A stretch of 42,408 nucleotides of DNA, from contig JAWLHR010000024.1 of the NCBI GenBank assembly GCA_041690295.1, positions 1 to 42,408 on the forward strand, given 5' to 3'. The position numbers and the translations under genes were made by a program. This document shows, piece after piece, positions 1-42,408 of this stretch. The notes under the pieces were generated by a model that was not told the origin of the DNA, made no database searches, and saw only the letters and a program-made list of their open reading frames with translations. Position 1 is the first letter of the stretch, and every line of letters starts with the position of its first letter. The DNA is from Bdellovibrionales bacterium. GTDB taxonomy: Bacteria; Bdellovibrionota; Bdellovibrionia; Bdellovibrionales; UBA1609.

Positions 1-97
1 CGTCGGAGGTTCGGCGGAAAAATCCGGCTTTCAAAATTCGCATCCGGTGATCGGACGTTTCTGGGGATGAATGGCAATAGGGGCAGCTTGGTCGCAT
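1..97 (-). CDS. Partial (5' end) putative IS1/InsA-like zinc-ribbon transposase
   Basis: ATG at 97 reads MRPSCPYCHSSPETSDHRMRILKAGFFRRTSD and stays open to the window edge. CPxC followed by a hydrophobic-K-x-G motif resembles the InsA-type N-terminal zinc ribbon. Confidence 0.5.
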   Translation of the reverse strand, partial: MRPSCPYCHSSPETSDHRMRILKAGFFRRTSD

Positions 98-112
98 GCT
101 CAGTGGTTAAGG

Positions 113-127
113 GCAAATTTCTCGCCA
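113..127 (-). promoter_or_regulatory. sigma54 (-24/-12) promoter-like motif inside the left repeat
   Basis: Minus strand TGGCGAGAAATTTGC = TGGC-N7-TTGC, exact sigma54 spacing. It ends 15 nt before the ATG at 97. Confidence 0.55.
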
Positions 128-156
128 TTATTTTCTGCAGGCTAGTGGGGCAGTTC

Positions 157-825
157 TTAGTGAACTTCGGCCGGAGTGTTGGCGCGAGCTTTAACCGTTT
201 GGTTCATCTCGCGTAAACGCTCATCGGCGATCGCACCGACTTGATCGCGATCGAGCGGGCGACCAGATTCGCTGGCCGCACCGTTGGTGTAGTTACGGGA
301 TGAAATGTACTCTTCGGGATGAACCGGGTTGGAAACGGAACGGTTCATATAGCCTTCTAGGAAGGAAAGAATATTTTCCTTTTGCTCGGGCAGGCGGCGA
401 ACGGCGTCGGCCGCATTACGCAAGAACTTCCAGAGGCTGGATTCGGAATTCGTGCCCACGGCATCGATTTTGGCCATATCCACCAGGGCGCGCTCCAGGA
501 AGGCCTTCATATCGCCGCCGCGGAACTTCGTATCGATTTGAAAAATCAGACGATCCAAGAATTCCTGGCGCAAAACATGTTCTTTTTTGGCCATTTTAAG
601 ATGGCTGATTTCCGCATCGATTTGAGACGGTTGGGCTTCTTCGATTTTGCGGGAAAGCGTTTTATCGATTTCCTGCAGGCGGTGTACGTTTTGAAAACGG
701 AGATCTTGCAAGTACTTCAAGCTGTCGGATTTAACGGATTCCGCCGAATCCGCCAAAACAGGGCCCGGGAGGCAGATTGCCACCATCATCAGGGCTATAT
801 TCAATTTGGCGGTCAGCGTTTTCAT
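157..825 (-). CDS. Hypothetical exported, largely alpha-helical protein
   Basis: 222-aa ORF with an N-terminal signal peptide (MKTLTAKLNIALMMVAICLPGPVLA) and an AAGGAG RBS upstream. Confidence 0.8.
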   Translation of the reverse strand: MKTLTAKLNIALMMVAICLPGPVLADSAESVKSDSLKYLQDLRFQNVHRLQEIDKTLSRKIEEAQPSQIDAEISHLKMAKKEHVLRQEFLDRLIFQIDTKFRGGDMKAFLERALVDMAKIDAVGTNSESSLWKFLRNAADAVRRLPEQKENILSFLEGYMNRSVSNPVHPEEYISSRNYTNGAASESGRPLDRDQVGAIADERLREMNQTVKARANTPAEVH

Positions 826-10888: not shown

Positions 10889-11999
10889 CTTTGGTGAAAG
10901 TAAAAAAGGACGAGTCTTGGTCGCCATGAGCGGCGGGGTGGATTCGTCCGTCGCGGCCGCTCTCCTGGTCGAACAAGGCTATGACGTGATCGGCGCCACC
11001 ATGCAGGTGTGGGATTACTCAAACACCAGTTGTGATCTCAGCAAAGGCGGCCGTGCGACCATCGAAGGTCATGGGACTTGCTGTTCAAGTACCGATGTGG
11101 ACGATGCGCGCGCCGTGGCTGATCAATTGGGCATTCCTTTTTATGTGATCAACTGCGAGGCCAAGTTCCAGGCTTACGTGATTGATGATTTCATCGGTTC
11201 GTACTTGGAAGGCCGCACGCCGATTCCTTGTTCCAACTGCAACACCTATTTGAAGTTCGATCATTTATTGCAGAAAATGCGCGAACTGGAATGCGACTAT
11301 ATCGCCACCGGGCATTATGCGCGCATGGAACGCGACGGTGATCGCTACAAACTGATTTCCAGTGCTGATAACATCAAAGATCAGACGTACTTCCTGTTCA
11401 CTTTGCCGCAGGAAATTTTGCGACACATTCTTTTTCCCGTGGGTCATTTGACGAAGTCGGACGTTCGCGCGCTGGCGGAGAGCAAGGGGCTTCCGGTGGC
11501 GCGCAAGAAAGATTCCACCGGAATTTGCTTTATCGGCCCAGGCGGTTATTCAAGCTTCATTGAGCAGCATGTGGCCAAAGACTTGTTGAAGCCGGGTCTT
11601 TTGAAGTTGTATCCGAGCGGTGAAGTCTTGGGCGAGCATTCGGGCATTCATAATTTCACCTACGGCCAGCGTAAGGGCATTGGTGTGGCCGCCGGTCGAC
11701 CGCTGTTCGTGATCAAAATCGATCCGGCGACGCACGAGGTGTGGTTGGGTGATGAAGAACATCTGTTTTCCAAAAACCTCACCGTGCGCCGGAGTAATTG
11801 GCTGACTCCCATTCGCGAAGGTGAGGAGTACTCGGTGAAAATCCGGTTCCAACATCGGGGAGCGCTGGCTCGTGTGAAAAAGATCCGGGGCGATGAGGTG
11901 GACGTGGAGTTTTTGGAATCACAACGCGCGATCACGCCTGGACAGGCCGCGGTCTTTTACAGCGGTCGCCAGTTGATCGGAGGCGGCTGGATCCAATGA
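10881..11999 (+). CDS. mnmA: tRNA 2-thiouridine(34) synthase MnmA
   Basis: AMSGGVDSS, TPIPCSNCN, ATGHYAR, KDQTYFL, DSTGICF, TPGQAAVFY. The ATG at 10881 overlaps the desulfurase stop. Confidence 0.96.
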   Translation: MYSFGESKKGRVLVAMSGGVDSSVAAALLVEQGYDVIGATMQVWDYSNTSCDLSKGGRATIEGHGTCCSSTDVDDARAVADQLGIPFYVINCEAKFQAYVIDDFIGSYLEGRTPIPCSNCNTYLKFDHLLQKMRELECDYIATGHYARMERDGDRYKLISSADNIKDQTYFLFTLPQEILRHILFPVGHLTKSDVRALAESKGLPVARKKDSTGICFIGPGGYSSFIEQHVAKDLLKPGLLKLYPSGEVLGEHSGIHNFTYGQRKGIGVAAGRPLFVIKIDPATHEVWLGDEEHLFSKNLTVRRSNWLTPIREGEEYSVKIRFQHRGALARVKKIRGDEVDVEFLESQRAITPGQAAVFYSGRQLIGGGWIQ

Positions 12000-13273
12000 C
12001 GCCGCTTCGTTTTCAAATCCACACCTTCGGCTGCAAGGTGAACACCTACGATTCGGGACTTTTACAGTCGCGACTGAAGGGGCATGGATTTCTTGAAGAC
12101 GAAGGCCAACCTCAGGTTCACATTATTAACACCTGCGCGGTGACTAAAGAGGCCACGAGGGAAGCGGTCAAAACCGCGCGCCGGTTAAAGATTAAAAACC
12201 CCGACTCTCTCGTGGTGGTGACCGGATGCTCGGCTCAGGTGGACACCGAGGAATTCGAACCGGTTCGAGGGATTGATCTCATTGTCGCCAACTCCCACAA
12301 AGGCCAGTTGGAAAACTTAATTCGCCGGTACTATGCGGGTGAGCTGCGCGACCGGATTCATAAATCCAACATTTTTAAAAAAGAGGATTTAGAACCGGGC
12401 GGGGGCGTGGAAAGCGCGCATACGCGTTCTTTTTTGAAAATCCAGGACGGGTGCAATTCCTTTTGCACCTACTGTGTGATTCCCTTCGCCCGCGGCAAAA
12501 GCCGAAGCATCGGGATTTATGAGATCGTGGAACGAATCAATGCCCTGGTGGAGCAAGGTGTGAAGGAAGTCGTGCTCACCGGCGTTCACATCGCCGATTA
12601 TCGCGACGGTGAAAAAGGCCTTGATGATCTGGTGGAAACAGTTTTGCTGAAAACCAAGGTGCCAAGGCTTCGATTGACCAGTCTTGAGCCGCTGGAGTTA
12701 AGCGAGCGGTTGTTGGAGTGTTACGCGGATCAAAGGCTTTGCCGCCACTTCCATATGAGTATCCAAAGCGCGAACTCGAAAGTTTTGCGGGACATGAAAC
12801 GCCAATACGACGCCGCGGCGGTGGAGACGTCTTTGATGACGATCGCCGAGAAGGTTCCGGGAAGTTTCGTGGGAATGGACGTGATCGCCGGGTTTCCCGG
12901 GGAATCGGATGAGGAATTCGTTGATTCCATCGACCGACTGCGGGGTTTACCGTGGACTCGCTTGCATGTGTTTCCCTATTCCGAACGGCCGGGCACCTTC
13001 GCCGCCCGCCGAAAAGATCAGGTGCCTTCGACCTCCATTCACAAACGGGCGGCCATGCTGCGTGAGCTTTCAAAGGAGAGATTCGAACAGGAACGCCGCG
13101 CCCAAGTGGGAACCGTCAAACGGGGGCTCGCCCTTCAGAAGGGGCGGCTTTTGACCCGGGACTTCTGGAAAGTTGAACTTGAAGACCAGCCCGTAAGTAT
13201 CAACGAAGAATTCGAAATTCGGATCACCAACACCAAACCCGACAGCGAATCATTGATGGCCCGTAAAATGTAG
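11996..13273 (+). CDS. mtaB: tRNA ms2t6A methylthiotransferase MtaB
   Basis: TFGCKVN, NTCAVT, VTGCSAQ, radical SAM motif CNSFCTYC, HVFPYSERPGT. Confidence 0.92.
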   Translation: MTPLRFQIHTFGCKVNTYDSGLLQSRLKGHGFLEDEGQPQVHIINTCAVTKEATREAVKTARRLKIKNPDSLVVVTGCSAQVDTEEFEPVRGIDLIVANSHKGQLENLIRRYYAGELRDRIHKSNIFKKEDLEPGGGVESAHTRSFLKIQDGCNSFCTYCVIPFARGKSRSIGIYEIVERINALVEQGVKEVVLTGVHIADYRDGEKGLDDLVETVLLKTKVPRLRLTSLEPLELSERLLECYADQRLCRHFHMSIQSANSKVLRDMKRQYDAAAVETSLMTIAEKVPGSFVGMDVIAGFPGESDEEFVDSIDRLRGLPWTRLHVFPYSERPGTFAARRKDQVPSTSIHKRAAMLRELSKERFEQERRAQVGTVKRGLALQKGRLLTRDFWKVELEDQPVSINEEFEIRITNTKPDSESLMARKM

Positions 13274-13320
13274 GCCGTTCCTTTTCAGGATGCCGCGCAT
13301 CCTGAAAAGGAACGGCCTAC
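13270..13320. repeat. Perfect 24-bp inverted repeat with 3-nt loop (GTAG-REP/REPIN-like; possible bidirectional terminator)
   Basis: GTAGGCCGTTCCTTTTCAGGATGC-cgc-GCATCCTGAAAAGGAACGGCCTAC. The arms contain the TAG stops of both convergent genes. Confidence 0.9.
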
Positions 13321-14732
13321 CTAAACAGCTCGATGGCTTGCATGATCAGTCCGCAAAGTACAAGCGGCGTTACCAAATAACGAAGCACGAACTCCCAATG
13401 ACGAAAGACTTTGACCGTGCCCGGTTGATTGGGAAGGGTGAATTCCGCTTCCACCGCTTCACGCTTGAGATGCCAAATCACCGCTTGGGAAATTAAAAGC
13501 GCGGCGATAGGTAAACACCAATTGATCAAGGCGCTATCCAGGGACTGAAGGAGATTGCGGTGCCCGATGGTTACGTCACGTAAAACGCTGGATGAGAGCG
13601 CGGGGCCGACGGCGATAATGAAACAAAGGACCGCCACCGCATAGGCTCCCCGGGAGCGCGGAACCCGCCGAAACTCGCGCCAATTGGCGACCACGTTTTC
13701 AAAAAGCCCGATGCTGGCGCCCAATGAAGCGAGATAAAGGCAAAGAAAAAATCCCAAACCGAACCAGAGACCGCCAGGAAGTCTTTCAACCAGATGAGGA
13801 ACCGTTTGAAAGAGCAATTCCGGGCCCGCGTGGGGCGCCTGGGCGCCGCCGATCAAGACCATGGGAAAGATCAAAACTCCGGCGCACAATGAAATTATGG
13901 AATCCATCATGCACACGCGAAATCCCGCCATCGGGATGTAAACCTTCTCACGTAAATAGCTGCCGAAGGTCACCATCGTTCCAAAGCCAACACTTAAGGT
14001 GAAAAACACGTGGCCGATGGCCTGGCCCAGCGACGCCAAAGTCAATTTTGAAAAATCCGGGTAAAACAAAAACCGCAAAGCCGCGCCGGCCGATTCCAGG
14101 CGCAGCGAATGCACCGCCAAAATGACCAGCAAAACGCCGAAAACCGGCATGACATAGCCCACCCATTTTTCCAATCCGAACTCCAGATCCTTGGCCACGA
14201 TGATCGCCACGATCAAAAGATGGACGCTGGTCAAAAGAAGTTGCAGCCAACCGTTTTGCAAAAGCACCATCAACGCATCATCCGGGTGAAAGCGGGAGGG
14301 ATCAATCAGGGCCACCGCCATGCGCATGAAGTAATGCAGAACCCAGCCGCTGATCACCGCGTAGTAGGCGAGGACGATCAAGGTGATCACCAAGTTAAAA
14401 AGACCGAAGCGGGAGAGGATCGACTGGACGCGCGGGGACGGCTCGGTGGAATTTTCGCGGATTTCGCGAACCATGTAGCGCTGACCCGCCAGCTTCGAAA
14501 GCGCGGCGAGAAGACTGCTTTTACTGATTTTCCCCAGGGCCAGCTCGGCGATCATGATGGGTAAACCAAGGACGAAAACCAGGGCCAAATAGATGAGCAC
14601 GAAAGCGCCACCCCCATTTTCCGCCACGATGTAGGGAAAGCGCCAGAGGTTTCCGAGCCCGAAGGCGGAGCCGACGGCGGCCATGTAAAAACCTAAGCGG
14701 GTTCCGAAGACAACCGTTTTGGACGAGACCAA
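13317..14732 (-). CDS. Sodium-dependent transporter, NSS/SNF (LeuT-like) family
   Basis: AAVGSAFGLGNLWRFPY, GGGAF, FFTLSVGFG and multiple TM helices. The TTG start lies 1 nt after the der stop. Confidence 0.93.
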   Translation of the reverse strand: MVSSKTVVFGTRLGFYMAAVGSAFGLGNLWRFPYIVAENGGGAFVLIYLALVFVLGLPIMIAELALGKISKSSLLAALSKLAGQRYMVREIRENSTEPSPRVQSILSRFGLFNLVITLIVLAYYAVISGWVLHYFMRMAVALIDPSRFHPDDALMVLLQNGWLQLLLTSVHLLIVAIIVAKDLEFGLEKWVGYVMPVFGVLLVILAVHSLRLESAGAALRFLFYPDFSKLTLASLGQAIGHVFFTLSVGFGTMVTFGSYLREKVYIPMAGFRVCMMDSIISLCAGVLIFPMVLIGGAQAPHAGPELLFQTVPHLVERLPGGLWFGLGFFLCLYLASLGASIGLFENVVANWREFRRVPRSRGAYAVAVLCFIIAVGPALSSSVLRDVTIGHRNLLQSLDSALINWCLPIAALLISQAVIWHLKREAVEAEFTLPNQPGTVKVFRHWEFVLRYLVTPLVLCGLIMQAIELFR

Positions 14733-41834: not shown

Positions 41835-42311
41835 ATGCAGCCCATTCCTGTCAGCCAATCGATCACGTACATGTCGGAACTGGTTCTCCCAAGTCACACG
41901 AATGCTCTGGATAGCATTTTCGGCGGTGTGCTCTTGTCGTGGATCGATATTTGCGCGGCCATCGCGGCTCAACGCCATTCCCATATGCCCGTCGTGACCG
42001 CGAGCATCGATGCCATGAGTTTCGTGGCGCCGGTTTATCAAGGCTGGATCGTCAATCTGAAAGCTTCAGTGAACTATGTCGCTCGCACAAGTATGGAAGT
42101 CGGTGTGCGAGTGGACGCGGAAAATCCCATCGTGGGAAAAACCTTTCACACCGCTTCGGCTTACCTCACATTCGTGGCGCTCGGTACGGATGGCCGGCCG
42201 GCCCTGATCCCGCCGGTTAAACCAGAAACTCCGGAGCAAATCCGGCGGTACGAGGCGGCGGAAAAGCGTCGCCAGCTTCGTTTGCAGCAACGCTCTTCCA
42301 ACAAACCCTAG
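41835..42311 (+). CDS. Acyl-CoA thioesterase (hotdog fold, YciA-like)
   Basis: VLPSHTNALDSIFGG, WID, VVTASID, RTSMEVGV, YLTFVA. Confidence 0.94.
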   Translation: MQPIPVSQSITYMSELVLPSHTNALDSIFGGVLLSWIDICAAIAAQRHSHMPVVTASIDAMSFVAPVYQGWIVNLKASVNYVARTSMEVGVRVDAENPIVGKTFHTASAYLTFVALGTDGRPALIPPVKPETPEQIRRYEAAEKRRQLRLQQRSSNKP

Positions 42312-42339
42312 AACTGCCCCACTAGCCTGCAGAAAATCC

Positions 42340-42354
42340 TGGCGAGAATTTTGC
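42340..42354 (+). promoter_or_regulatory. sigma54 promoter-like motif inside the right repeat
   Basis: TGGCGAGAATTTTGC = TGGC-N7-TTGC. Confidence 0.55.
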
Positions 42355-42369
42355 CCTTAACCACAGGGC

Positions 42370-42408
42370 ATGCGACCAAGCTGCCCCTATTGTCATTCAT
42401 CACAAGAA
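42370..42408 (+). CDS. Partial (5' end) paralog of the zinc-ribbon ORF
   Basis: ATG 42370 reads MRPSCPYCHSSQE, 12/13 aa identical to the ORF starting at 97 on the minus strand. Confidence 0.5.
   Translation, partial: MRPSCPYCHSSQE

Follow-up and report, generated by a model that had tools for sequence, protein, structure and literature searches.

What sequence closes off both ends of this contig, and why do its copies lie so tightly against the ends of host genes? The window analysed here, 42,408 nt in length, is the entire contig C24 of a 2.88 Mb genome assembled into 30 contigs. As the original prediction held, its two ends carry the same element in inverted, outward-facing orientation: positions 59–157 match 42310–42408 at 91/99 nt (BLASTN 91.9% over 99 nt, E 2e-35), and at both ends the outer edge is sharp, falling at base 1 of a 23-bp terminal repeat (Table 1). 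Both tips also open an ORF, as had been noticed at first. The left one starts with an ATG at 97 on the minus strand and encodes MRPSCPYCHSSPETSDHRMRILKAGFFRRTSD, the right one with an ATG at 42370 on the plus strand and encodes MRPSCPYCHSSQE, and both run off the contig.

Table 1. Coordinates of the element tips, their flanks and the adjoining genes in the window
Feature	Position	Strand	Basis or remark
Left tip of one IS copy, truncated by contig start	1..157	-	Repeat and BLASTN match
23-bp left terminal inverted repeat AGAACTGCCCCACTAGCCTGCAG	135..157	-	Repeat search
Transposase ORF, first 32 codons (first CxxC pair of zinc ribbon)	1..97	-	Sequence
9-bp flank AGTTCACTA in target-site position	158..166	-	No duplicate at the matching right end, which reads TAATCTTTA
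222-aa conserved gene, no Pfam match	157..825	-	Stop TAA (159-157) completed by the element's first base (TA+A)
Thioesterase-superfamily gene (PF03061)	41835..42311	+	Stop TAG (42309-42311) completed by the element's first two bases (T+AG)
9-bp flank ACAAACCCT in target-site position	42301..42309	+	Sequence
Left tip of second IS copy, truncated by contig end	42310..42408	+	Repeat and BLASTN match
23-bp left terminal inverted repeat, second copy	42310..42332	+	Repeat search
Transposase ORF, first 13 codons	42370..42408	+	Sequence; comparison with full-length copies

The 23-bp repeat is found at 28 ends in the genome at up to 3 substitutions; a copy on contig C11, whose left repeat has lost one base, comes in addition to these. 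Full-length elements with the matching far end were recovered. They measure 968–969 bp and carry 23-bp inverted repeats on both sides, and the 969-bp insertion sequence holds a single 298-aa ORF with zinc ribbon, helix–turn–helix (HTH) and predicted RNase-H-like core. Nine copies lie within contigs. Seven of them measure 968–969 bp; another, of 966 bp, extends to a contig end, and the ninth is an internally deleted copy of 517 bp. The ORF is intact in seven of the nine and frameshifted in one. Six further left and six right pieces run off contig ends, which brings the total to about 15 copies in the genome. Of the 60 contig ends, 13 fall inside the element. This bears out the view of a multi-copy mobile family that has diverged by about 8% and where the assembly broke. 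An ordinary paralogous gene pair, which had been set beforehand as the refuting outcome (two copies only, no transposase, no edges), is contradicted by the 28 repeat matches, the transposase ORF and the sharp edges; copy number, sharp terminal repeats and full-length anatomy rule it out. The 517-bp copy (G000:C10:83374-83890, locus L008) retains both ends intact and is possibly a MITE precursor. No sigma-70-like promoter was found within the element.

Pairwise identity among the copies of this genome ranges from 0.896 to 0.948 and no two are identical, which counts against a recent burst. The seven intact ORFs are under purifying selection (mean dN 0.024, dS 0.34, dN/dS about 0.07 over 21 pairs). 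The copies are also mosaic: incompatibility between neighbouring sites is 0.26 vs 0.58 in permutations (p 0.001, 93 informative sites), although part of this mosaicism could come from short-read assembly.

The zinc ribbon is well conserved, with C41 and C44 present in 98 of 98 diverse representatives of the transposase, C5 in 91 and C8 in 86. A Pfam scan returned weak HTH hits, and helices 62–113 of an AF2 model match HTH structures (pLDDT 82 over the 298-aa protein; the loop at 226–246 is of low confidence). The model as a whole matches DDE transposases and integrases. The top structural match is the IS256-family transposase of ISCth4 (PDB 6xg8; Z 12.7, TM 0.50, rmsd 7.3 over 248 aligned residues), from which the protein differs by its 10–12% identity, an rmsd of 7–8 Å and a length difference of about 100 aa, and integrases follow at Z about 10 and rmsd 3.2–3.6. 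This fold match does not place the family, because no IS1 structure is among the listed matches; the IS256 profile NF033543 matches three of the 98 representatives, weakly. A sequence search against the PDB gave HLA matches only, which we attribute to chance.

Four residues, D123, D202, N248 and R255 (N+7), are invariant in all 98 representatives. In alignments with true IS1 transposases, D123 and D202 stand opposite the first two Asp residues. The counterpart of N248 is the catalytic Glu of IS1 (IER/IEQ) in two comparisons; a further comparison sets N248 opposite the Asn of IS1 at E+3, at the cost of a 3-residue gap. In either register the third catalytic position is without a conserved Glu. 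In DDE enzymes the catalytic Glu lies seven residues before a basic residue. A DDE triad followed by K/R is also mentioned in PMC7986276. Other residues could serve as third ligand in place of N248, namely H249 (conserved in 88/98), E235 (91/98) or D242 (96/98). N248, possibly together with H249, is nevertheless the best candidate third ligand of the predicted catalytic centre, because it is invariant and stands seven residues before an invariant Arg, and because E235 and D242 are absent from three inspected members of a 390-aa sister subgroup. In that subgroup the Asn is found in 119 of 120 sequences, a His after it in 119 and R/K at N+7 in all 120. We thus consider it likely that the transposase works with an Asp123–Asp202–Asn248 centre in what is, by prediction, an RNase-H-like fold. 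The 390-aa subgroup (L125:1372-2541 on the plus strand, also L126 and L129; 321 clusters) forms elements of about 1.2 kb with AACTGTGCG ends, a C-terminal extension and the same Asn-His...Arg motif, without the GQGEL loop. In another subgroup (L117, L118, L119), which keeps the Asn, the ends read ATACCTG and the inverted repeats are much longer (IR scores 38–65).

The zinc ribbon had been taken to resemble that of IS1-family transposases, and kinship with IS1 is supported: the NCBIfam and HHalign comparisons place IS1 nearest. The best curated NCBIfam model is that of IS1 (NF033558), which gives 52.3 bits over residues 33–213, under its cut-off of 100, and matches 95 of the 98 representatives. 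HHalign comparisons with IS1 gave 95.9% and 97.9%. The nearest Atlas clusters that bear a Pfam domain carry PF03400, although PF03400 itself gave no match at E up to 5 in the two copies scanned, against 58.8 bits for a true IS1 control. Compared with IS1 (E. coli IS1; WP_015213505, WP_281010015, BAU15903), the protein has the same order of zinc finger, HTH and catalytic core, the same D...D spacing and an RxxRLxRKT-type motif past the third catalytic position. The terminal repeats are similarly short (about 20–30 bp expected; 23 bp here and similar in the 74 elements analysed below), and the 9-bp target duplication of the family matches the 8–9 bp of IS1 (PMC12428005). The element differs from IS1 in its Asn in place of Glu, in two insertions, one of about 25 aa that follows strand 3 and one of about 15–17 aa before the catalytic helix, in its length (969 bp vs 768 bp) and in its ends. 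It also has one ORF, without the insA/insB -1 frameshift of the classical IS1 group; this does not exclude the IS1 family, because single-ORF members such as ISCaa1 exist (PMC3196728). In a quick tree, unrooted and with long-branch warnings, five IS1 rows stand apart on a long branch (SH-aLRT 98); one of the IS1 rows in the alignment and tree (L178) is frameshifted and was read unrepaired. Membership proper did not stand: with Asn at the third catalytic position, an HMM score under the cut-off and ends that are not of the GG type, we file the element, which acts like IS1, as an unclassified IS1-related subgroup outside the IS1 family.

IS1595 transposases likewise have a single ORF and an N-terminal zinc finger (PMC8101967). 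The IS1595 model NF033547 has no match in this genome and matches 2 of the 98 representatives, weakly, and the element differs from that family in its 9-bp duplication in place of 8 bp (k=8, 0/74; k=9, 13/74) and in lacking GG ends. In the IS1595-family element L140 the third residue is a His seven residues before a Lys, a precedent for a non-acidic third residue. DDN and DDH subgroups are included in the IS1595 family. The ISNCY groups include ISPlu15, ISA1214 and ISLbi1; no ISNCY model was among the NCBIfam matches of this protein and of the 98 representatives. The IS1 model is also cross-hit, through zinc ribbon and HTH, by apparently ISL3-like transposases of 400 aa (L127, L128, L137), and four matches of identical score lie in genome G092.

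Relatives of the transposase fall into 5456 clusters at 90% identity; of clusters built at 50% identity, 497 match at E up to 1e-30. The element is matched, in a patchy pattern, in 23 of 41 related genomes, and the best 80 genome loci are nearly all from Bdellovibrionota, with four labelled ‘Proteobacteria bacterium’. The suggestion of a lineage-specific element thus has to be widened, as it is not confined to one species. At E 1e-5 the 298-aa protein matches none of 72,556 plasmids and none of 50,697 phages; for a distant family member, the same collections gave one weak N-terminal match to an IS1595-like element. Among clusters and homologues, the most specific family name was ‘transposase-like’. 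The literature searched yielded no account of this clade; a prior description in ISfinder or in the key IS reviews is possible.

Ends were compared in 74 elements, made up of 66 of the best 80 loci (14 that were cut or unclear were dropped) and eight copies from this genome. An AACTG core follows two variable bases, which are AG, TA or AA and less often GG, CA, CT or GA. The ends of IS1 begin with GG as a general rule. Here GG tips account for 9 of 148 ends overall and 1 of 29 in this genome, compared with GGTAGT in three cyanobacterial IS1 controls, in agreement with the initial remark that the end is not recognisable as a described IS1 repeat. The proposed check for target-site duplications finds them in a minority of the family's elements and not in this genome: a 9-bp duplication with at most 1 mismatch occurs in 13 of the 74 elements against 0.3 expected, 11 of them exact, and is absent from all eight complete copies here. 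Duplications of 2–8 or 10–12 bp are not enriched at the true boundary, except at k=4 (2 vs 0.3), and what shows up at offsets -1 and +1 is these 9-bp repeats again, read out of register. That old duplications decayed through point mutation is unlikely, because mismatch counts between flanks leap from 0–1 (13 elements) to mostly 5–8 (48 elements).

The 13 duplicated targets define a palindromic AT-rich motif, about W-R-A-A-N-Y-T-Y-W. Where an element's two flanks differ by more than 2 mismatches (59 elements, 118 flanks), the flanks fit this motif in register (0.31 bits vs -2.04 ± 0.25, 0/1000 shuffles), as they do when the outer four motif positions alone are scored (likewise 0/1000). Consequently, each unduplicated flank looks like a separately chosen target of the transposase. 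Among left–right flank pairs of this genome, one of 210 matches at up to 2 mismatches; this pair, the C10 start and the C19 end (1 mismatch), may be one copy split by the assembly.

We then come to the stop codons. An inward stop, of an ORF of at least 100 codons, lies within 3 nt of the element at 18 of 29 ends in this genome, at 54 of 98 ends of other elements without duplication and at 6 of 24 ends of those with one (ends with less than 500 nt of flank were dropped). The near-stop share in this genome and in unduplicated elements is thus 55–62%, against a null of 9% from motif-weighted sites (72/800); intergenic sites gave 13/600. Inward stops occur at both ends of 34 of 57 elements that lack a duplication vs 2 of 11 that have one. 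Because elements of one genome or genus are not independent, the Fisher p of 0.011 overstates the significance. In 41 of the 54 near-stop ends of unduplicated elements, and in 11 of the 18 here, the stop is completed by 1–3 bases of the element. Over all ends, the commonest tips are AG, AA and TA. Both window genes that adjoin the element show this arrangement (Table 1). The 222-aa gene is 63–71% conserved in five of five relatives with a variable tail, the thioesterase gene terminates near the same residue (…NP*) in three of five, the gene at the C10 end terminates where its relatives do, and at the C6 site about four residues are missing from the left gene, to which the element contributes four. 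Judged from these sequence comparisons, the junction is placed at or near the natural gene end for the few genes compared with relatives.

Two insertion sites, that of the C6 copy and the left one of the window, are syntenic with empty sites in relatives, and the extra 9 bp is absent from both. The C6 site is syntenic in the 12 relatives fetched, the gap here being 0–31 bp shorter and never 9 bp longer; at the left site of the window the flanks overlap by 2 bp only. In five of five relatives the 222-aa gene faces the gene of C10:106559-107378. Since these two genes face each other, the left copy would span the gap between C10 and C24, and its remainder most likely lies at the end of contig C10, with its right end at C10:107384. 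For three other sites, five relatives offer no usable match to the right-hand flank; for a fourth, a break is seen, with the flanks about 16 kb apart or on different contigs in relatives. The two inverted copies flank a 42-kb block (window 1-42408), which could be inverted by recombination between them; in G016 the genes at its two ends sit on one contig, 43 kb from each other. A domain scan of seven proteins, including a control from outside the window, shows ordinary housekeeping genes in the interior of the block, such as those for a PP-loop protein, FtsH, a GlnD-like protein, a LuxR-type regulator and the thioesterase. The PP-loop and ftsH genes have the 222-aa gene upstream, in divergent orientation. 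Between the convergent ORFs 11996-13273 and 13317-14732, positions 13270-13320 form a perfect inverted repeat of 24 bp around a 3-nt loop, which is probably a bidirectional terminator or a REP-like hairpin.

Several observations bear on mobility. One contig of run X4 leads from a right end across 9 bp to a left end, and a contig of run X1 places a right end within a gene, where this genome and X4 both have an empty site; both junctions are on single low-depth contigs, and that of X1 is seen on one side only. The X4 junction suggests the spacer expected of a circle or a tandem. Elements that form circles have a spacer as long as their duplication (PMC3299598). Copies in other genomes reach 98.5–99.2% identity. 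Loose ends in the runs indicate that several insertion sites are common to other strains of the species; a second loose-end flank, from run X3, has no match in this genome, and no empty-site joint was seen at the C6 copy in four runs at depth 2–4.

The reading that we favour, at a probability of roughly 60%, is that of an IS1-related single-ORF insertion sequence of 969 bp with a predicted RNase-H-like fold and a likely Asp123–Asp202–Asn248 centre, which likely inserts at 9-bp AT-rich targets and then makes adjacent deletions up to stop codons. The zinc ribbon and HTH would bind the 23-bp repeats, as in IS1, and both ends would attack a palindromic 9-bp target together and duplicate it. Later intramolecular attacks on nearby targets would remove the duplication and flanking DNA, so that each flank becomes a separate target, and selection would retain the deletions that stop at a gene's end. 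Stopping there would be easy, because the tips (AG, AA, TA) finish or supply TAA/TAG. Recombination or gene conversion among copies would account for the mosaic copies. A 1995 paper by Turlan and Chandler reportedly names circles and replicative deletions in its title. Transposition of IS1 itself is described as mainly replicative (PMC12428005). The 2-bp overlap of flanks at the left site of the window counts against the deletion account, as it would need an unusually short deletion of 7 bp.

Direct targeting of gene 3' ends (convergent stops, terminators) might also place the element beside stops, its variable tips being selected to rebuild the stop and its two ends maybe integrating at separate nearby sites, thereby replacing intergenic DNA in one step. 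The completion of stops by element bases, the excess of inward stops at both ends of unduplicated elements and the commonest tips would all suit such targeting. We consider it unlikely, however, as elements with intact duplications, presumably the younger ones, adjoin stops less often, the X1 junction lies inside a gene, and unduplicated flanks fit all nine target positions, as concerted attack predicts. Loss of duplications through homologous recombination between copies would make adjacent deletions unneeded and stop adjacency a mark of tolerated insertion sites. Distant swapping of this kind would break the gene neighbours of relatives, yet these are kept at the C6 and left window sites, and the single matching flank pair, maybe one copy split by assembly, is all that it can draw on among the 210. 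Although the copies are strongly mosaic, swapped flanks would fit the target motif too, and 83% of full-length IS copies in Amoebophilus lack duplications (PMC3196728), we regard this route as improbable.

Least credible, in our opinion, is that the Asn blocks strand transfer and that each copy is a DNA-binding gene, old, immobile or domesticated, with gene conversion homogenizing the set. It would explain the missing third acidic residue, copies that are 5–10% apart, insertion sites common to other strains and the lack of matches in plasmid or phage collections, but it has to contend with exact 9-bp duplications, near-identical copies in other genomes, patchy presence across relatives and the polymorphic (X1) and end-to-end (X4) junctions. 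A bolder extension, which we hold to be doubtful, would make the element part of an IS family that is undescribed, occurs in predatory bacteria and has a natural Asp-Asp-Asn site. Such a family would have given up the GG terminus so that its first bases complete host stops, and would sit between convergent genes and strip intergenic DNA harmlessly as a genome-trimming device.

On the favoured reading of an IS1-related element that erodes its flanks, the consequences reach beyond this contig, of whose genome the element alone accounts for 13 of the 60 contig ends. Since the labels on thousands of these transposases go no further than ‘transposase-like’ or ‘hypothetical’, and they reach none of the curated family cut-offs tested, the number of insertion sequences in Bdellovibrionota is probably underestimated. 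If the Asn centre is active, the family would be a natural test of the tolerance of two-metal DDE chemistry to loss of the Glu, and also of transposase function where the terminal dinucleotide is not fixed. Set side by side, duplicated and unduplicated elements provide a measurable record of insertion sequences eroding their flanks to gene ends, and such erosion is a testable route to genome compaction.
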